Virus record (IMG/VR): IMGVR_UViG_3300025778_000009
Direction: 5' to 3' (one strand)
DNA from: a virus
Taxonomy: Duplodnaviria; Heunggongvirae; Uroviricota; Caudoviricetes
DNA length: 64,000 bases
This document shows, piece after piece, positions 55,746 to 61,388 of this stretch. The translations under genes were made by a program, and so were the position numbers. Within the stretch, counting starts at the first letter, position 1; each line of letters opens with the position of its first letter. The notes under the pieces were generated by a model that was not told the origin of the DNA, did no database searches, and saw nothing but the letters and a program-made list of their open reading frames with translations.

Positions 55746-56533
55746 AAATAGCACATGAAGCTCCTATAAGTATATTTCCTACAGTTCAGCTTATGACCGA
55801 TTATGATTATGCGCTGGTACATTTATTTGAATCTAATTTAATGTATTACCGCATGTTCAAGGATGCAGTGGTAAGCGGACGTGAAGTAATTCTTGATAAT
55901 TCTATTTTTGAATTAGGTACATCATTTGATGGTGATACTTATTTTAATTGGATTGAAAAGTTACAACCTACATGGTACATTATACCAGATGTACTAGAAG
56001 ATAAACAGGGCACTTTGGATAAAATGGATAATTGGTTATCTAAGTATAAAGTCTCTTCAAATATTAAATCTATTGGTGTTATTCAAGGTAAGACTTTTGA
56101 TGAGCTTGCTGAATGTTATTTAAAGATTGCTCCACGGGTAGATAAAATTGCAATCTCTTTTGATTACTCATACTATATAGAATCAACAAAAGATATTAAT
56201 CCTACTAGCAAATACGCTGCATGGATGTTTGGTCGTCAAGCATTGTTAGAGGATTTACTTGCTGATGGTATTATAGATACTAACAAGCCCCATCATTTAT
56301 TAGGTTGCGCTTTACCACAAGAATTCTCTGCCTATAAAGACTATAAGTGGATTGACTCTGTTGATACTTCTAATCCTGTAGTACACGGGTTAAATGGTAT
56401 ACATTATACTTCTAATGGCTTAGATAGTAAAATTTCTACTAAGCTTATTGAGTATATGAACGAACAAGTAACCGATATACAACTTGGTATGGTTAAATAT
56501 AATATTGAAAAATTTAGAGAGTTTTGTAATTGA
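55742..56533 (+). CDS. dpdA: DpdA-like (tRNA-guanine transglycosylase fold) protein lacking the zinc subdomain; candidate DNA 7-deazaguanine transglycosylase
   Basis: NKPHHLLGCALPQEF...IDSVDTSNPVVHGLNG parallels the TGT core KPRYLMGVGKPEDL...DMFDCVMPTRNARNG. ILDNSIFELG lies at the position of the DSGGFQ substrate pocket. The gene sits inside the preQ gene cluster. Confidence 0.55.
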   Translation: MKIAHEAPISIFPTVQLMTDYDYALVHLFESNLMYYRMFKDAVVSGREVILDNSIFELGTSFDGDTYFNWIEKLQPTWYIIPDVLEDKQGTLDKMDNWLSKYKVSSNIKSIGVIQGKTFDELAECYLKIAPRVDKIAISFDYSYYIESTKDINPTSKYAAWMFGRQALLEDLLADGIIDTNKPHHLLGCALPQEFSAYKDYKWIDSVDTSNPVVHGLNGIHYTSNGLDSKISTKLIEYMNEQVTDIQLGMVKYNIEKFREFCN

Positions 56534-57066
56534 GACCGTGGATAGCTCTTTTTAGTCAAACTGGAAGTGAACTCAAAAGTATTTGTGATCACTTTAACGT
56601 ATGGCCTACAAACATATATACTAACAATTATAATGAAGATCAATGGGCTCATAATATACCTGTTGATAAAGTAACCATTATGAGCCATGATGCTATTCAT
56701 AATGGATTGCGCTTTACTAAGCAAAATTGCTTTGTAACCTTGCATGGATATCTTCGTATTATACCTGCTGACGTTTGTAAAATGCATGACATTTACAACG
56801 GTCATCCTGCACCTATACATCTTTATCCAGAACTTAAAGGTAAAGACCCTCAAGAGCGTATTTGGGAAGGTAATGCCAGGTATCATACATTAGGTTCAGT
56901 TATTCACAGAGTAACAGAAGGTGTTGATGAAGGCGAAATAGTTTATAGTGTTATTGAAGATAATACTTGCATTAGTAAGGAAGAGCTTTATAATACACTT
57001 AAGGATTGCTCATATAATTCGTGGATTGAATTTTTAGAAAGTAAGATAGATGTCAGCAAAAGATAA
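56530..57066 (+). CDS. PurN/Fmt-like formyltransferase (minimal N-terminal catalytic domain)
   Basis: RPWIALFSQTGSELKSI matches PurN RIAVLISGSGSNLQAI. FVTLHGYLRIIPADVCKMHDIYNGHPAPIHLYPELKG matches PurN VVLAGYMRIL...NIHPSLLPKYPG, with catalytic N, H and D. HRVTEGVDEGEIV matches PurN HFVTDELDGGPVI. Confidence 0.7.
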   Translation: MRPWIALFSQTGSELKSICDHFNVWPTNIYTNNYNEDQWAHNIPVDKVTIMSHDAIHNGLRFTKQNCFVTLHGYLRIIPADVCKMHDIYNGHPAPIHLYPELKGKDPQERIWEGNARYHTLGSVIHRVTEGVDEGEIVYSVIEDNTCISKEELYNTLKDCSYNSWIEFLESKIDVSKR

Positions 57067-57304
57067 TAAAGATGCAATTAGACCTAATCATTATAAAGGT
57101 AAAGGTAAATACGAATGCATCGATGTAATTGAAGATCTCTGCAATACTTCTACTAATGATCGATTTACTGACTACAATAGGTTTCAAGCTTTTAAATATG
57201 TCTGGCGTGCAGGTAATAAAGATCCTGTAATTCAGGATCTTAAGAAAGCTATTACGTTTTTAGAATTTGCAATTGCATATGAGGAAAAGAAAAATGTCAA
57301 GTAA
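57050..57304 (+). CDS. small conserved phage protein (DUF3310-like)
   Basis: RPNHYKGKGKYECIDVIEDL resembles the P-x-HY...G-x-E-x-ID-x-I signature recalled for DUF3310. Confidence 0.4.
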   Translation: MSAKDNKDAIRPNHYKGKGKYECIDVIEDLCNTSTNDRFTDYNRFQAFKYVWRAGNKDPVIQDLKKAITFLEFAIAYEEKKNVK

Positions 57305-58235
57305 GATTGAAGATATTGCATCCGTACACTTAGGAAAGGCTGGAGATGGATCAGTTGTTAAGCCTTATATTACTCCCGATTTTATTGATCGTAGCCTTCT
57401 TGTGGGTATTCCTCGCATGCTTAATCGCACTGCTTACAATATTGATGAATCTGATCTACCTTTCGTTGGTTTTGATACTTGGAACTGTTATGAGTTTTCT
57501 ACCCTTACTGATAATGGGTTTCCTGTTTGTGGTGTTATTAGGATTAGTTATCCGTCTGATTCGCCTAATATTGTAGAGTCAAAGTCACTTAAACTCTATA
57601 TGAACTCATTTAACATGACTCACTGTGGTAAGACCGTTGAGGATGTTATTGCAAAAGCAGAAGAAGTTATTATTCAAGATCTTGCACCTGCATTAGGTAT
57701 TGAGTATGATGATCTCTCAGTATCATTTGTTAATGAGTTTTCAGATACAGTAACACCAATCAAGAATTATTTTGCTCTTCTTGAAACTACAGTAGATGTA
57801 GAAAATATTTCGTTTGACCATTTTAACGAAGATCCAGATATCTTACAAATTGTAGATTATACTGGTATGAATCAAAATGGTATGCAAGTACGTTCTGCAG
57901 TTCTTCGTTCTAACTGCCGTGTTACTAATCAGCCAGACTGGGGTGATGTATATATTTCATTCAGAGGTGAAAAAGGTGTAACACCTGAATCACTACTACA
58001 GTATATTGTTTCTATGCGTAAAGAAAATCACTTTCATGAAGAGATTTGTGAGTGCATTTATAAGCGACTTCATGATATGCTACAACCAGAAGATCTTTTT
58101 GTAGCATGTCTGTATACACGTCGTGGTGGTATTGATATTAATCCAGCACGCGCTTCTAGCTATGAGCTATTAATGACTTATGCAGATAATCTAAGCAAGA
58201 CTCATAAATTGAACAATAAGACATTGAGGCAGTAA
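57294..58235 (+). CDS. queF: NADPH-dependent 7-cyano-7-deazaguanine reductase, bimodular (YqcD-type) QueF
   Basis: The first half carries the QueF motif VESKSLKLYMNSFN. The second half carries the catalytic Cys context NCRVTNQPDWGDVYISF and HFHEE. The ATG at 57294 follows GAGGAAAAG. The tracked ORF starts at 57267. Confidence 0.75.
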   Translation: MSSKIEDIASVHLGKAGDGSVVKPYITPDFIDRSLLVGIPRMLNRTAYNIDESDLPFVGFDTWNCYEFSTLTDNGFPVCGVIRISYPSDSPNIVESKSLKLYMNSFNMTHCGKTVEDVIAKAEEVIIQDLAPALGIEYDDLSVSFVNEFSDTVTPIKNYFALLETTVDVENISFDHFNEDPDILQIVDYTGMNQNGMQVRSAVLRSNCRVTNQPDWGDVYISFRGEKGVTPESLLQYIVSMRKENHFHEEICECIYKRLHDMLQPEDLFVACLYTRRGGIDINPARASSYELLMTYADNLSKTHKLNNKTLRQ

Positions 58236-58981
58236 TGAACTTACAAGAAGCATTAGCAGCATTACCTGATACAGATGATAATGTAGTATCCGTTCTTTCT
58301 GGTGGAATGGATTCTACTATCATGACTTACATCCTTGTTGCAAAGTATGGCAAGGAAAGAGTTTTTGCTTTATCATATAACTATGGTCAAAAGCAAAAGA
58401 AAGAACTTGAGATGGCTGCCAAGACATGTGAATATCTTGGCATTGCTCATAAAGTATTGGATCTTGGAATTCTTGGTGATATTGTAAAGGATGTCAGTGC
58501 AAATATCGGCGGCACTGACGTGGCTATGCCAACCATCAAAGATGTTCTTGGAGATCCACAACCTAAAACTTATGTACCATTCCGCAATATGATCTTAAAT
58601 GCATTAGCATTTTCATTTGCTGAATCTAATAAAGCTTCTCATGTATTTACCGGTTTACAAGTACATGACGAGTATGGCTACTGGGATACTTCTCAGAAAT
58701 TTGTTGATAATATGAATGCAGTTGCTGGTCTTAATCGCACCCACAAGGTTAAGCTTGAAGCGCCTTTTAGTCAATTAGCAAAGTGGGAAGAGATCAAGAT
58801 TGCAGAGGAGCTTGGTAATGTTAAACTTGAATACACTCTTACTTGTTATGATCCTGATGATGATGGAAGGTCATGTGGTGTTTGCCCCAGCTGTTCGGAG
58901 CGTATACAGAATTTTATTAGAGCTAATGTTCGTGATCCTATTGCTTACGTACACGGTATCGATTGGGATAGATTTATATAA
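58235..58981 (+). CDS. queC: 7-cyano-7-deazaguanine synthase
   Basis: VVSVLSGGMDSTIM is the PP-loop. The C-terminal zinc ligands are CYDPDDDGRSCGVCPSCSERI, a QueC-type CxxC...C cluster. Confidence 0.8.
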   Translation: MNLQEALAALPDTDDNVVSVLSGGMDSTIMTYILVAKYGKERVFALSYNYGQKQKKELEMAAKTCEYLGIAHKVLDLGILGDIVKDVSANIGGTDVAMPTIKDVLGDPQPKTYVPFRNMILNALAFSFAESNKASHVFTGLQVHDEYGYWDTSQKFVDNMNAVAGLNRTHKVKLEAPFSQLAKWEEIKIAEELGNVKLEYTLTCYDPDDDGRSCGVCPSCSERIQNFIRANVRDPIAYVHGIDWDRFI

Positions 58982-59610
58982 TGTGCAGTATCATTGGTTC
59001 TTTCAGTAAAGATAAAATTGCTGACCTCGTAAAGCTAAACCTTTATAGAGGTCAGCATTCATATTCTTATTCTTACTATAACCTTGAAGATAATACAATC
59101 CAAGTAAACAGAGGCTTAGGTGAGATACCTCTTGATGCTATTAACATACCCGATAGGTGCTATTGTATTGCTCATATGCAGGCGCCTACAACAGAAAATA
59201 AAGATATAAATTCTGTTCACCCTGCTTATAGTGGTAATGCTTTACTATGGCATAACGGTATAGTAAAGGCAAAATGGATTAACGAACGTAAGCAACAATA
59301 TGAAGGTGACCGTTATAATACTTGGGATACTTATTTGATTTTAAAGCAGTATGCTGAGGAAGGTCACCTAAATAATATTGATGGTACTTTTTCCTGTGTG
59401 TACTACAGTCCTATGGAAGGATTGCAGTTGTTTCGCAATCTCATTTCACCATTGTTCATAGATGATGATCATAATATCTCATCTACAAAATTTGAAAATT
59501 CTCAACCATTACCTGCAAATATTATCTGGAGTTTTAATCCAGGTGAAGGTATTATAAGAGATGGTATTTTTAATACAGTTGAAAACCCTTATTATGGATT
59601 AGATTTATGA
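58981..59610 (+). CDS. class-II (Ntn, AsnB-type) glutamine amidotransferase domain protein; effectively a split Gat-QueC in reversed order
   Basis: The N-terminus MCSIIGSF provides the catalytic Cys2 after Met removal. YRGQHSYS, HNGIVKAKW and GTFSCVYYS parallel AsnB MCSIFGVF, HRGPDWSG, NGEIYN and GMFAFALYD. The start ATG overlaps the queC stop as TAATG. Confidence 0.65.
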   Translation: MCSIIGSFSKDKIADLVKLNLYRGQHSYSYSYYNLEDNTIQVNRGLGEIPLDAINIPDRCYCIAHMQAPTTENKDINSVHPAYSGNALLWHNGIVKAKWINERKQQYEGDRYNTWDTYLILKQYAEEGHLNNIDGTFSCVYYSPMEGLQLFRNLISPLFIDDDHNISSTKFENSQPLPANIIWSFNPGEGIIRDGIFNTVENPYYGLDL

Positions 59611-60122
59611 GTATGTTACATATTGCTTCAAAGAAAACCAAATCAAGTTTAACCAATATGTTGGATGAAGATATCCAACCTAATGCCGTTGATCTTCGTC
59701 TTGATAAAATTTTTATTATTCATCCTGCTCTCTTTACTCTTGGTACTGATGATACTGGTAAAGAAATCAAAAAGCATAGAGGATCAGTAGAGATATATCC
59801 TGATAGTGAAGGTTACTTTTATTTGCATCCAGGTAATGCATACGAAGTTATTATGGAAAATGTTATTGAGGTAGGTGATGGTGAAGCAGGTTGGGTTATT
59901 ACCAGAAGTACTCTTAATCGTAATGGTTTGTATATTACTTCCGGTTTATATGACTCTGGCTATCATGGAGTTATGGCTGGTGCTCTACATGTAAAAAATG
60001 GTCCAGCAAAAATTAAAAAAGGTAGCCGTATTGGCCAGTTTTTACTTTTTAAGTCTGAGTCACTAAAGAAGTATGATGGTGATTATGGTCTCGGTAAAGA
60101 GCATGATAAAAAATATACTTGA
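59607..60122 (+). CDS. dUTPase / dCTP deaminase-family protein (T4 gp56-sized, 171 aa)
   Basis: NAVDLRLDKIFII...ITSGLYDSGYHGVMAGAL contains the GxxDxGYxG motif of the all-beta dUTPase/Dcd superfamily. Confidence 0.6.
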   Translation: MSMLHIASKKTKSSLTNMLDEDIQPNAVDLRLDKIFIIHPALFTLGTDDTGKEIKKHRGSVEIYPDSEGYFYLHPGNAYEVIMENVIEVGDGEAGWVITRSTLNRNGLYITSGLYDSGYHGVMAGALHVKNGPAKIKKGSRIGQFLLFKSESLKKYDGDYGLGKEHDKKYT

Positions 60123-60314: not shown

Positions 60315-61388
60315 ATGGAAATTAAAATTGATTTAGAATTATTGCGCTCTAAGAAAATTTTCTTAGCTACACCAATGTATGGTGGTAATTGTAACGGCAT
60401 GTATACCCGTTCATTGTGTGACTTGACCGCTATGTGTGTTAAGTATGGTATTGAACTTCGTTCTTACTTTCTTTTCAACGAGTCCTTGATTACACGTGCT
60501 CGTAACTATTGTGTTGACGAGTTTATGCGTTCAGGTGCAGATCACCTTCTATTCATTGACTCTGACATTGGATTTAATCCACAAGACGTTATTGCTATGA
60601 TGGCATTGCAAGCAGCAGAACCAGAGAAGTATAATGTTATTGGTGGTCCATATCCTAAGAAGTGTATTACATGGGAAAAGATTCTTGCTGCTGTTAATAA
60701 AGGTGTAGCAGATCAAAATCCTAATCAGTTAGAAGATTTCGTCGGTGATTTTGTTTTTAATCCAGTTATTACAGGTGAGCAGACTTCTATTCGTCTTGAT
60801 GAGCCAGCTGAAGTTCTTGAGATCGGTACAGGCTTTATGATGGTAACACGTGATACTTTCTTGACATTTGAAAAAGAGTATCCACAGTATTCCTATAAAC
60901 CAGATCATGTTCGCACCGAAGCCTTTGATGGTTCACGTGAAATTATGATGTACTTCCAGGCTGAAAAAGATGGTTTAGATTATGGCAAGTTCTATGCTGA
61001 CGGTATGCAGAAAATTGCCGCTATGCGTCTCAACGATCCTGATCTAGTACAAGCAGAAATTGAAAAGTTAATGGCAACTGCTATTGAAATGGATTCAAGA
61101 ACTTCTAAGCGTTATCTCTCAGAGGATTATTGGTTCTGTCAATTAGTTCGCCGTATTGGATTGAAGGTCTGGTTGTGCCCTTGGATGCACTTACAGCATG
61201 CTGGTACATATGTGTTTGCTGGTAAGCTACCTGCATTAGCTTCAATTGGTGCATCTGCAACTGCTGATGCTGCTCTTCTTAATAAATTTAAGAACGGCGG
61301 TGTAGCTAAACCAGCAATCGCACCTTCAAAGTCTACACCGGTCATTGCTAATGATCCTGCTCTTCTTAGCAAGTTTAAGAAGATTTAA
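60315..61388 (+). CDS. putative GT-A-fold (DxD) glycosyltransferase with a C-terminal duplicated Lys-Phe-Lys tail
   Basis: IFLATPMYGGNCNG...ITRARNYCVDEFMRSGADHLLFIDSDIGF resembles the GT2 pattern of an N-terminal Rossmann strand followed by R-N-x6-G-x3-L-F-h-D-x-D. The tail carries AALLNKFKNGG and PALLSKFKKI. Confidence 0.4.
   Translation: MEIKIDLELLRSKKIFLATPMYGGNCNGMYTRSLCDLTAMCVKYGIELRSYFLFNESLITRARNYCVDEFMRSGADHLLFIDSDIGFNPQDVIAMMALQAAEPEKYNVIGGPYPKKCITWEKILAAVNKGVADQNPNQLEDFVGDFVFNPVITGEQTSIRLDEPAEVLEIGTGFMMVTRDTFLTFEKEYPQYSYKPDHVRTEAFDGSREIMMYFQAEKDGLDYGKFYADGMQKIAAMRLNDPDLVQAEIEKLMATAIEMDSRTSKRYLSEDYWFCQLVRRIGLKVWLCPWMHLQHAGTYVFAGKLPALASIGASATADAALLNKFKNGGVAKPAIAPSKSTPVIANDPALLSKFKKI

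Follow-up and report, generated by a model that had tools for sequence, protein, structure and literature searches.

The window, a 64,000-nucleotide stretch of phage DNA, is T4-like: genes for gp45, gp44, gp62, and RegA lie downstream of the region described here, which is part of a co-directional 7-deazaguanine DNA-modification cluster of about 8.5 kb. Modifications of this type shield phage DNA against restriction enzymes and, in vitro, against Cas9, and the 7-deazaguanine pathways are being catalogued enzyme by enzyme. The cluster and its immediate neighbor comprise the following genes.

51568..52458, + strand: QueE-like radical-SAM enzyme (CDG synthase); Pfam Fer4_12 and Radical_SAM
52712..53233, + strand: QueD / 6-pyruvoyl-tetrahydropterin synthase family (CPH4 synthase); Pfam PTPS, 4e-16; kept in related loci
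53233..53934, + strand: flavodoxin-like NADPH-dependent FMN reductase; Pfam FMN_red, 1.4e-15
53946..54677, + strand: FolE, GTP cyclohydrolase I (first pathway step); Pfam GTP_cyclohydroI, 3.8e-39
55742..56533, + strand: DpdA3-type DNA guanine transglycosylase, which would put the 7-deazaguanine base into DNA; tblastn match to the DpdA of phage immuto
56530..57066, + strand: DpdN-type formyltransferase, predicted preQ1/dPreQ1 N-formylase; Pfam Formyl_trans_N
57050..57304, + strand: DUF3310 small protein, between DpdN and QueF; Pfam DUF3310, 2.1e-12
57294..58235, + strand: bimodular QueF, NADPH-dependent preQ0 reductase (preQ0 to preQ1); Pfam QueF_N and QueF
58235..58981, + strand: QueC, ATP-dependent preQ0 synthase (CDG to ADG to preQ0); Pfam QueC, 3e-53
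58981..59610, + strand: stand-alone class-II (Ntn) amidotransferase-like protein, here called Gat; PHROG 12378 (function unknown), 2e-37
59607..60122, + strand: dCTP-deaminase/dUTPase-like protein (DCD), coupled translationally to Gat; Pfam DCD, 9.3e-17

The genes for QueF, QueC, and Gat are consecutive, with an overlapping TAATG at each junction: the QueF TAA stop (58233-58235) overlaps the QueC ATG at 58235, and the QueC TAA stop (58979-58981) overlaps the Gat ATG at 58981. This confirms the arrangement noted in the preliminary description of this DNA, in which a bimodular QueF, a QueC, and a stand-alone class-II Ntn amidotransferase-like gene are coupled in translation. The QueF ATG (57294) has GAGGA upstream; a longer form from TTG 57267 is possible, and independent metagenome gene calls use the 57294 start to give a protein of 313 aa. 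The Gat ORF encodes 209 aa with the amino terminus MCSIIGSF, and its TGA stop (59608-59610) overlaps the ATG (59607) of the DCD-like gene as ATGA. This latter gene, which probably acts in nucleotide-pool metabolism, follows Gat in many, though not all, of the related loci.

Three other genes deserve comment. The QueE start is uncertain (TTG 51568 or an internal ATG nine codons downstream), and syntenic QueE homologues from related phage loci are 30-85% identical. The DUF3310 protein, syntenic in many loci, matches PHROG families named "nucleotide kinase" over their C-terminal portion. The FMN reductase may be a reductant for QueE; tblastn returned no match to it in 84 related loci, and because it is confined to the window among the loci compared, its membership in the pathway is uncertain.

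PreQ1 synthesis and the predicted end product

Pfam places both QueF and QueC in their families far beyond chance. QueF matches QueF_N (1.7e-27) and QueF (1.8e-21), the signature of the bimodular type; its score against the NCBIfam model TIGR03138 (227 bits) falls under the cut-off of 293, and it is therefore a divergent member. Alignment with Vibrio cholerae QueF (3BP1; 2.6e-45) pairs SNC-RVTNQPDWG and ESKSLKLY with their counterparts, and shows that ESKSLKLY, the catalytic Cys in SNCRVTNQPDWG, and FHEE are retained. The NADPH motif, taken as E(S/L)K(S/A)hK(L/Y)(Y/F/W), is present. Phage-encoded QueF had been regarded in the preliminary description as uncommon; in fact, 64 phage records match the window QueF, and the bimodular type accounts for about half of the QueF sequences in phages (PMC10516641).

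QueC exceeds the cut-off for the TIGR00364 equivalog (172.3 vs 150.3 bits). Its P-loop (SGGMDS) and zinc motif (C-x9-C-x2-C-x2-C) align to QueC 2PG3, and it also matches the Asn_synthase and NAD_synthase PP-loop profiles in Pfam. Ammonia is the nitrogen donor for QueC (PMC13082051).

The likely end product is defined by two genes directly upstream that the preliminary description overlooked, DpdA3 and DpdN. In tblastn comparisons, DpdA3 is 57% identical to immuto DpdA (annotated "DNA guanine transglycosylase"), 37% to that of Campylobacter phage CP220, and 24% to that of Cellulophaga phage phiST, over at least 92% of its length. Those three proteins belong to the DpdA3 subfamily (PMC10516641), and these identities place the window protein in the same group. 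Pfam yields no match for it, and the TIGR00449 tgt model (tgt_general) a weak one (E 0.029). The gene is flanked by FolE and DpdN. DpdN itself scores 33.9 bits against Formyl_trans_N (PF00551; cut-off 26.1), its only matches in the phage database are the immuto DpdN genes (39% identity), and it adjoins DpdA3, as in immuto. Its activity is a prediction even in immuto (PMC10516641).

Flavobacterium phage vB_FspM_immuto, whose DNA contains 100% fdPreQ1 (PMC10516641 Table 1), has the same gene set: DpdA3, DpdN, QueF (46% identical), QueC, QueE, QueD, and FolE. The local order also is the same: DpdA3, DpdN, a small kinase-related ORF, and QueF. The window differs in being T4-like, in having QueC adjoin QueF and then Gat, and in encoding the flavodoxin-like FMN reductase. 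Since DpdA3, DpdN, QueE, QueD, and FolE, together with QueF and QueC, make up the immuto pathway, the predicted end product is formyl-preQ1 DNA (fdPreQ1). FolE, QueD, and QueE would convert GTP to CDG; QueC would convert CDG to preQ0, consuming two ATP and one ammonia; and QueF would reduce preQ0 to preQ1. DpdA3 would insert the deazaguanine base into the phage DNA in exchange for guanine, and DpdN would generate 7-(formylamino)methyl-7-deazaguanine, probably in place of most or all G.

Phage QueF, DpdA3, and DpdN have been described already; the main addition here is that fdPreQ1-type clusters also occur in a T4-like lineage that is uncultured and widespread. With the remaining gene set of known kind, the cluster's only undescribed member is the small glutaminase-like Gat.

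The Gat family

As a single sequence, the Gat ORF gives a weak Pfam match (GATase_6, 5e-5, under the gathering score). A family profile retrieves the GlmS and PurF glutaminase domains from the PDB at 1.6e-5, and the AlphaFold model (pLDDT 90.9, pTM 0.88), which adopts the four-layer alpha-beta-beta-alpha Ntn fold, brings GlmS, GFAT-1, PurF, and EgtC to the top in Foldseek (E about 3e-8 to 6e-7; TM (query) 0.56-0.72). Because GlmS and PurF come out on top by both sequence and fold, the label "AsnB-type" given in the preliminary description does not fit. These glutaminase domains, along with EgtC, are the nearest proteins of known structure, and share 9-18% identity with Gat. Unlike GlmS and PurF, the Gat chain carries no acceptor domain. 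EgtC, a stand-alone Ntn amidohydrolase, shows that a free domain of this fold, of about 230 aa, can act as an enzyme by itself.

Gat has 334 metagenome homologues, and 293 representative clusters match at E<1e-30. On sequence comparison, it forms its own family, found almost exclusively in phages. We found no discussion of this phage family in the literature, including the Gat gene of KVP40-like phages, pf16, and Vibrio phage 2.275.O.

Residues expected of a glutaminase are largely present. Cys2, which aligns to GlmS Cys1, is found in 263 of 264 family members, and among the best 150 of the 293 clusters matches nearly always begin at residue 1, in keeping with the need of an Ntn nucleophile for an N-terminal position. 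WHNG (Asn92, 272/273; Gly93, 273/273) and WDT (Asp116, 273/273) align to GlmS HNG and DTE; the GlmS counterparts considered are the oxyanion-hole residues Asn98-Gly99, and Asp123, which binds the substrate alpha-amino group. The preliminary description would have been refuted by the loss of Cys2 and the oxyanion residues; Cys2 and the Asn-Gly oxyanion pair are both present and invariant in the family. In all, Gat retains six of the seven canonical positions of the glutamine site: Cys, Thr-Thr, Asn-Gly, and Asp. To judge from the alignment and the model, Gat looks catalytically competent.

The seventh position is different. Gat H-M-Q67-A-P-T aligns to GlmS H-T-R73-W-A-T and to N-x-R88-A-E-P-T of Gat-QueC (the fused archaeosine-type enzyme discussed below); this residue is Gln in 272 of 273 members and never Arg. 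The glutamine alpha-carboxylate is bound by this Arg in GlmS and PurF (Arg73), AsnB (Arg49), and Gat-QueC; with Gln in its place, Gat may have a low affinity for glutamine or a different substrate altogether. Moreover, three residues that flank the catalytic motifs, Trp90 (252/273), Trp115 (273/273), and Lys96 (262/273), are absent from the GlmS and Gat-QueC alignments examined. Because the glutamine-binding Arg is missing throughout, this family offers a clean test case for the substrate specificity of Ntn amidotransferases.

These family-specific, nearly or fully invariant features provide the case for viewing Gat as an active Cys-Ntn enzyme that is not a glutaminase, and that adds or edits a step around QueC, although we consider this unlikely. 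The Arg-to-Gln replacement together with Trp90, Trp115, and Lys96 might, at similarly long odds, re-shape the pocket for another amide or a nitrile. Its substrate could then be another nitrogen donor (asparagine, for example) or a 7-deazaguanine intermediate, ADG or preQ0, candidates that are equally doubtful; Cys attack on the preQ0 nitrile is precedented by the thioimide chemistry of QueF and QueF-L (PMC5485725). Retention of six of the seven glutamine-site positions argues otherwise. If Gat acted on ADG or preQ0 other than by supplying ammonia, the reaction would be futile or in competition with QueF, yet the pair is kept across pathways with differing end products. Furthermore, there is no hint of an extra deazaguanine species in phages phi-Grn1 or phi-ST2, which carry homologues (PMC10516641). 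That the QueC-linked Ntn family as a whole acts not on glutamine but on some other nitrogen donor, or on an amide or nitrile of the 7-deazaguanine type (such as ADG or preQ0), is a tentative idea that we judge rather improbable; if true, it would reveal an undescribed chemical step in preQ0 synthesis, common to hundreds of phage lineages.

Pairing of Gat with QueC

In 76 of 77 loci, QueC directly precedes Gat and has the same orientation; stop and start overlap in 51. At one locus (L088), Gat adjoins QueF, not QueC, and at 15 loci unrelated genes are inserted between QueC and Gat. All 51 Gat-carrying phage-database records have an adjacent QueC, and no QueC-Gat fusion protein occurs among the best 150 of the 293 representatives. 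This QueC-then-Gat order is conserved independent of the genes downstream and of QueF or DpdN: the pair is seen with DpdA3, DpdN, and QueF; with QueF alone; and with neither. Two loci (L005 and L006) encode QueC and Gat proteins 95% and 90% identical to those in the window, and QueF and DpdN were not found in the locus sequence covered. The pair therefore must yield preQ0, the intermediate common to these pathways and the one required by QueF; Gat goes with QueC rather than with a given end product. The Gat-paired QueC proteins also form a separate clade, with 51-68% mutual identity vs less than 39% identity to all other phage QueC proteins.

Adjacency could instead be inherited synteny, with Gat a general auxiliary metabolic gene, unrelated to QueC, that acts for example in nitrogen or nucleotide-pool metabolism along with DCD. 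Most loci do represent one broad T4-like lineage with the order QueC, Gat, (DCD), a 357-aa ORF, gp45, and gp44; Gat overlaps the DCD start; and the 15 loci with insertions show that separation is tolerated. Nevertheless, this explanation is improbable. QueC and Gat remain adjacent in pf16 and in jumbo phage 2.275.O even though every other neighbor differs there, and also in KVP40-like phages; many loci keep the pair without DCD. Cellular genomes tell the same story: Gat has six matches among 185,579, all on short MAG contigs, and of the five contigs that matched some cluster gene, four carry QueC plus other cluster genes.

QueC catalyzes the sole nitrogen-incorporating step of the pathway. Together, the observations suggest that Gat is an ammonia-supplying subunit of QueC, in a cluster that makes fdPreQ1-type DNA; we assign this reading a probability of roughly 0.55. 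The overlapping TAATG would keep Gat synthesis matched to that of QueC; Gat would use Cys2 to hydrolyze an amide donor, which is most likely glutamine, and would hand the ammonia on to QueC. The two proteins would form a two-subunit amide-dependent preQ0 synthase, with an AsnB-like division of labor between separately encoded subunits. Observed directly are the gene identities, the catalytic motifs, the fold, and the QueC-then-Gat pairing; the physical complex, the transfer of ammonia, glutamine as donor, and fdPreQ1 as the final base are inferred. Of the two alternatives offered in the preliminary description, ammonia feed to QueC is thus favored, and a G+-type product is not.

There are parallels among PP-loop enzymes. 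AsnB and GMP synthase couple the PP-loop domain to a glutaminase domain or separate subunit, which in AsnB is a fused class-II GATase and in the archaeal two-subunit GMP synthase a class I protein (PF00117) rather than an Ntn one. They work by the scheme proposed for QueC and Gat, in that the PP-loop enzyme activates a carboxylate and the glutaminase supplies ammonia, but the acceptor is aspartate or XMP rather than CDG/ADG, and the canonical glutamine-binding Arg is missing from Gat. Both glutaminase domains and separately encoded subunits are on record for these related enzymes, the archaeal GMP synthase subunits being encoded by adjacent genes (PMC13082051). QueC has been described as using free ammonia, so a dedicated amide-hydrolyzing partner, if true, would add a core pathway component. 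It also would offer a biochemical handle on phage nitrogen supply, given that DpdA3 systems can replace all guanines.

Several observations temper this proposal. To the Gln at the Arg position, the absence of a fusion protein among the best 150 of the 293 representatives, the L088 locus, and the 15 loci with insertions, two others can be added. The phage-database search found no Gat homologue in immuto, which nevertheless reaches 100% fdPreQ1; Gat therefore is not essential for the pathway. In KVP40-like phages that carry QueC-Gat, only about 0.01-0.1% of G is modified (PMC6884629, PMC10516641), which weakens the argument that Gat serves a high nitrogen demand.

Gat, Gat-QueC, and archaeosine

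Gat-QueC of phage 9g and Crenarchaeota likewise combines a class-II Ntn module with QueC, and shares the MC(S/A)I nucleophile, HNG, and PTTE. It is one polypeptide with Gat first, whereas in the window QueC comes first and the two ORFs occupy separate frames. The motifs are RGRDG, N-x-RAEPTTE, DQQPY, and VHNGTIAN in Gat-QueC, and YRGQHS, HMQAPTTE, VHPA, and WHNGIIK in Gat; Arg88, invariant in the former, is Gln in the latter. Gat-QueC is linked to dG+/G+ without QueF, whereas the window has an adjacent QueF and its homologous phages lack dG+, an indirect comparison, made on the DNA of those relatives.

Could QueC and Gat nevertheless constitute a two-gene Gat-QueC, an archaeosine (G+) synthase, such that the phage makes both a G+-type amidine and a preQ1-type amine? 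In phages of the 9g type, Gat-QueC in place of QueC does give dG+ (PMC6884629). The two Gat groups are homologous by profile, with a common PTTE beside the active-site loop (hhalign 94.4%). Some related loci have DpdA, QueC, and Gat, with QueF not found in the sequence covered, and so formally resemble the dG+ set; and a small amount of dG+ is present in phage nt-1, which carries the QueC-Gat pair (PMC6884629). We regard this explanation as distinctly improbable, and would not expect Gat to act as a G+ synthase. The same triple is present in phi-Grn1 and phi-ST2, whose DNA contains dPreQ1 and mdPreQ1 but zero dG+, and no dADG or dPreQ0 (PMC10516641 Table 1), which also speaks against the two end products envisaged in the preliminary description. 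DpdA2 plus ArcS2 suffice to reproduce the nt-1 dG+ in Escherichia coli, with no Gat (PMC10516641 Table 3). Near-identical QueC-Gat pairs (the 95% and 90% cases above) serve clusters with and without QueF, and a G+ product would be a dead end because QueF needs the nitrile. Nor does the epithet "permuted, split Gat-QueC" hold: BLASTP against the Gat-QueC of phage 9g gives E 0.01 over 41 aa, hhalign gives 94% probability at 19% identity, and Gat belongs to its own family with Gln for the invariant Arg. If Gat indeed serves QueC, the family warns against reading any GATase beside QueC as a marker for archaeosine (dG+).

Among the KVP40-like Vibrio phages, KVP40, VH7D, phi-Grn1, and phi-ST2 carry the QueF-QueC-Gat triple of the window, as do Pseudomonas phage pf16 and Vibrio phage 2.275.O, and nt-1 has QueC-Gat alone, with overlapping or near-overlapping genes as in the window; identities to the window proteins are 30-40% for Gat, 51-68% for QueC, and 45-52% for QueF. 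Unlike the window, the KVP40-like phages are without DpdA3 and DpdN, and use DpdA2 with DpdM or ArcS2, with low modification (PMC6884629, PMC10516641). Gat in these phages is annotated as "hypothetical protein" or "nucleophile aminohydrolase".

A modification cluster of probable fdPreQ1 type

Between 51.5 and 60.1 kb, the plus strand of the window carries co-directional ORFs, and on the ORF map those from 54763 to 60122 are contiguous or overlapping. ORF identities come from Pfam, NCBIfam and PHROG scans, with the specific evidence in parentheses:

Genes of the cluster
51568-52458, plus strand, QueE-like radical-SAM enzyme
52712-53233, plus strand, QueD/PTPS
53233-53934, plus strand, FMN-reductase/flavodoxin-like protein (Pfam FMN_red, 1.4e-15)
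53946-54677, plus strand, FolE
54977-55330, plus strand, HNH endonuclease
55742-56533, plus strand, DpdA3 (without Pfam match; identified through phage homologues)
56530-57066, plus strand, Formyl_trans_N protein, DpdN-type (Pfam)
57050-57304, plus strand, DUF3310 protein (Pfam)
57294-58235, plus strand, bimodular QueF (QueF_N plus QueF; Pfam)
58235-58981, plus strand, QueC (3e-53; exceeds the TIGR00364 equivalog cut-off)
58981-59610, plus strand, Gat, a class-II amidotransferase-like protein of 209 residues with the N-terminus MCSIIGSF (family profile, fold)
59607-60122, plus strand, dCTP-deaminase-like (DCD) protein

The stop-start overlap noted in the preliminary description is confirmed, along with its neighbors: TAATG joins QueF to QueC and QueC to Gat, and ATGA joins Gat to DCD. 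The genes for the gp45 clamp, the gp44 and gp62 clamp-loader subunits, and RegA follow, which identifies the window as part of a T4-like phage. It represents no sequenced isolate: the 55.7-60.2 kb region has no megablast match among 50,697 phage records. An identical Gat protein, with the same neighbors and gene calls, occurs on 15 metagenome contigs (ENA, JGI, Logan). Scans of the whole window for tRNAs and Rfam families, including the preQ1 riboswitch, gave no matches. Promoter and terminator counts across 51-61.5 kb were close to shuffle expectation, and so do not set operon boundaries; the T4 late-promoter motif TATAAATA does not occur within the cluster.

Two genes overlooked in the preliminary description, DpdA3 and the formyltransferase, bear directly on the end product. 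DpdA3 is 57% identical to DpdA of Flavobacterium phage immuto; for the homologues in Campylobacter CP220 and Cellulophaga phiST the figures are 37% and 24%. The sole phage-database matches to the formyltransferase are the immuto DpdN genes, at 39% identity. Local order is also similar (DpdA3, DpdN, kinase, QueF in immuto), except that the window has the DUF3310 protein before QueF. In immuto DNA, fdPreQ1 (formyl-preQ1) is the sole deazaguanine, at 345,000 per 10^6 nucleotides (PMC10516641, Table 1), and the DpdA3 subfamily is tied to complete G replacement (Cui et al. 2023; PMC10516641). Since both enzymes are immuto-like, the gene set probably specifies an fdPreQ1-type pathway, with fdPreQ1 as the predicted end product. 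In such a pathway, GTP would be converted to CDG by FolE, QueD, and QueE; CDG to preQ0 by QueC; and preQ0 to preQ1 by QueF. DpdA3 would insert the base into DNA, and DpdN would formylate it. Judged from gene content, the cluster is thus a further candidate immuto-type pathway, in a widespread uncultured T4-like lineage.

Aligned with V. cholerae QueF, the window protein retains the NADPH motif ESKSLKLY, the thioimide Cys in SNCRVTNQPDWG, and FHEE, and looks functional. QueC likewise retains SGGMDS and the four-Cys zinc site. Nor is a phage-encoded QueF uncommon, as had been supposed: such proteins, the bimodular type included, are well documented (PMC10516641), and 64 phage records match the window QueF.

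Several other ORFs merit comment. The NADPH-dependent, flavodoxin-like FMN reductase between QueD and FolE is without counterpart in a comparison with 84 related loci; the radical-SAM enzyme QueE could draw on it as a reductant supplied by the phage. The HNH ORF, inside the cluster between FolE and DpdA3 and flanked by small ORFs (54763-54975 and 55314-55745), is probably a mobile homing-type element. The DUF3310 protein is conserved in the interval between DpdN and QueF, where immuto has a thymidylate kinase; in PHROG, DUF3310 forms the C-terminus of 'nucleotide kinase' families, and one metagenome protein of 349 residues (P0263) is a Gat-DUF3310 fusion. Finally, a 357-residue ORF (60315-61388, plus strand; PHROG 1574, unknown function) with a weak, sub-threshold Glyco_transf_21 match separates the DCD-like gene from gp45 in nearly all related loci.

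Gat family, fold, and active site

By itself, the Gat sequence makes only a weak Pfam match (GATase_6, 5e-5, under the gathering score). It belongs to a family of 334 homologues of about 205-220 residues (90% clusters), with 293 clusters at 50% identity (E<1e-30), designated PHROG 12378 ('unknown function'). Searched against the PDB, the family profile picks out E. coli GlmS (1.6e-5) and PurF, in each case through the glutaminase domain. The AlphaFold model built from the family alignment (pLDDT 90.9, pTM 0.88) retrieves GlmS, GFAT-1, PurF, and EgtC in Foldseek (E ~3e-8, TM 0.6-0.72); of these, EgtC is a stand-alone Ntn hydrolase. The automatic JGI name, PurF, can be rejected: Gat has 209 residues and no phosphoribosyltransferase domain.

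Conservation of Gat residues in a 273-sequence alignment, read against the GlmS alignment
Cys2: 263/264; GlmS Cys1, nucleophile
Asn92: 272/273; GlmS Asn98, oxyanion
Gly93: 273/273; GlmS Gly99, oxyanion
Asp116: 273/273; GlmS Asp123
Gln67: 272/273, Arg in none; GlmS Arg73

The nucleophile and oxyanion residues, whose absence the preliminary description had named as a refutation, are therefore conserved, and from its alignment Gat looks catalytically competent, position 67 excepted. There, Gln replaces GlmS Arg73, a ligand of the glutamine alpha-carboxylate in class-II amidotransferases. Trp90, Trp115, and Lys96 are further family-specific invariants.

The arrangement had been described as a permuted, split Gat-QueC, the fusion of an N-terminal glutaminase to QueC known from phage 9g. 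This holds only in the loosest sense. BLASTP of Gat against 9g Gat-QueC aligns the first 41 residues (E 0.01), and a profile of eight Gat-QueC N-terminal domains matches the Gat family profile with 94% probability but 19% identity. The signature motifs differ as well: the Gat-QueC group has an invariant Arg, within N-x-R-A-E-P-T-T-E, whereas the Gat family has Gln, within H-x-Q-A-P-T-T-E. Identity between the window QueC and the corresponding part of the 9g protein is 26%. Remote identity and differing motifs rule out recent fission or permutation, and argue that the Ntn module next to QueC was recruited separately or diverged very long ago. Fusion in the order QueC-then-Gat would in any case be poorly compatible with an Ntn nucleophile, which needs a free N-terminus unless autoprocessed. 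Among the best 150 of 1,451 profile matches, alignments nearly always start at residue 1, and there are no QueC-Gat fusions ('Rosetta stone' evidence); in the three longer proteins the C-terminal extension is of another kind, in one case DUF3310.

The QueC-Gat pair and its product

In the phage database, Gat occurs in 51 records: 49 Vibrio phage (KVP40-like phages and jumbo phage 2.275.O) and two of Pseudomonas phage pf16. QueC lies directly 5' of Gat in the loci inspected, despite differing other neighbors:

Gat loci of sequenced phages
KVP40: QueF 72732-73622, QueC 73687-74373, Gat 74397-75002
VH7D, phi-Grn1, phi-ST2: the QueF-QueC-Gat triple, as in KVP40 and the window
pf16: QueF-QueC-Gat
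2.275.O: QueF, YhhQ-like transporter, QueC, Gat, FolE
nt-1 and its near-twin CZ01: QueC-Gat, no QueF match

A survey of 80 IMG/VR loci plus others gave 77 in which both genes are complete. QueC is upstream of Gat on the same strand in 76; stop and start codons overlap in 51, gaps of at most 53 nt separate the genes in 10, and unrelated genes (inserts of 300-1185 nt) in 15 (among them L031, L033, L044/L045, L047, L058, L059, L064, L073, L076, L077, L082, L084). The insert ORFs, read by eye from translations only, include ones that are GIY-YIG-like, YhhQ-like (a membrane protein resembling preQ0 transporters), HAD-type 5'-nucleotidase-like (DMDGV motif), and ACP-like. The sole exception is L088, a Flavobacterium-labelled MAG contig (1220-2658 and 6960-7652): Gat is followed at once by QueF, and QueC is about 5 kb off. 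Gat-paired QueCs share 51-68% identity with the window QueC; all other phage QueC or Gat-QueC proteins fall below 39%. QueC and Gat have thus been handed down as a unit. A Gat function unrelated to QueC is improbable. Cellular genomes contain almost no members of the family: a search of 185,579 species gave six MAG contigs, all short. Five match some cluster gene, and four of those five carry QueC plus other cluster genes.

Around the pair, three configurations recur:

Configurations of QueC-Gat loci
i, as in the window: with DpdA3, DpdN, DUF3310, and QueF
ii: with QueF; DpdA3 and DpdN not detectable
iii: with a divergent DpdA (~33% identity); QueF and DpdN absent from the available sequence

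Across loci L005-L084, compared with window positions 55742-58235, close T4-like relatives swap this 'end-product cassette' while QueC-Gat stays constant, which suggests that sister phages carry different deazaguanine modifications. Many Gat loci lack DpdN, ruling out joint action of the two (hydrolysing or making formamide). In two loci of configuration iii, L005 and L006, QueC is 95% and Gat 90% identical to the window proteins, and to judge by this likeness the pairs almost certainly share a product. Because such pairs occur with and without QueF, and the substrate that QueF of the window requires is the nitrile preQ0, that product is most simply preQ0.

The proposal of two end products, one of them a G+-type amidine, fares poorly. 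Phi-Grn1 and phi-ST2, both triple carriers, have 816 and 668 dPreQ1 per 10^6 nt, plus mdPreQ1, but zero dG+, dADG, and dPreQ0 (PMC10516641, Table 1); the VH7D QueF complements an E. coli queF mutant (PMC10516641). DNA of nt-1 does contain a small amount of dG+ (PMC6884629), but DpdA2 and ArcS2 alone reproduce it in E. coli (PMC10516641, Table 3). That QueC and Gat together form a G+ synthase is hard to credit, given the zero values in the two triple carriers.

Proposed ammonia supply to QueC

QueC, the pathway's only nitrogen-incorporating step, is described as an ammonia user (PMC13082051). In AsnB, its PP-loop relative, a fused class-II GATase supplies the ammonia; in GMP synthase the GATase is fused or, in some archaea, separately encoded and adjacent (PMC13082051). 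This suggests a model in which Gat supplies ammonia to QueC, to which we assign a probability of roughly 0.55. The preQ0 synthase would then have two subunits and depend on an amide, with Gat generating the ammonia, and translational coupling would have Gat made together with QueC. Fold, catalytic residues, and genomic linkage are established; the complex, a channel, and the identity of the donor are predictions of the model. If a DpdA3-type system replaces every G, each would cost one ammonia, a rationale for Gat. However, modification is low in the KVP40-like carriers, so nitrogen demand alone is no explanation.

The main weakness of the ammonia-supply model is the change of the invariant Arg to Gln: either the glutamine carboxylate is held otherwise, or the donor or substrate differs. 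The latter would make Gat a non-glutaminase Ntn enzyme, using another donor or acting on a deazaguanine amide or nitrile; we consider this unlikely, even with Gln67 standing in for GlmS Arg73 in 272 of 273 sequences.

If the ammonia-supply model is correct, a PP-loop enzyme has in Gat an amidotransferase partner whose active site is distinctively altered. Public genomes have contained the QueF-QueC-Gat triple since KVP40, with Gat labelled 'hypothetical protein' or 'nucleophile aminohydrolase' in GenBank. Literature searches and four papers (PMC6884629, PMC10516641, PMC13082051, PMC5485725) make no mention of the stand-alone protein, which may nonetheless have been noted elsewhere.

The clade of Gat-paired QueCs also has an N-terminal extension of ~12-16 residues (MNLxEALxxLPxT...; window 58235-58285) ahead of the SGGxDS P-loop. 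The solved QueC structure 2PG3 lacks this extension, on which Gat might dock.
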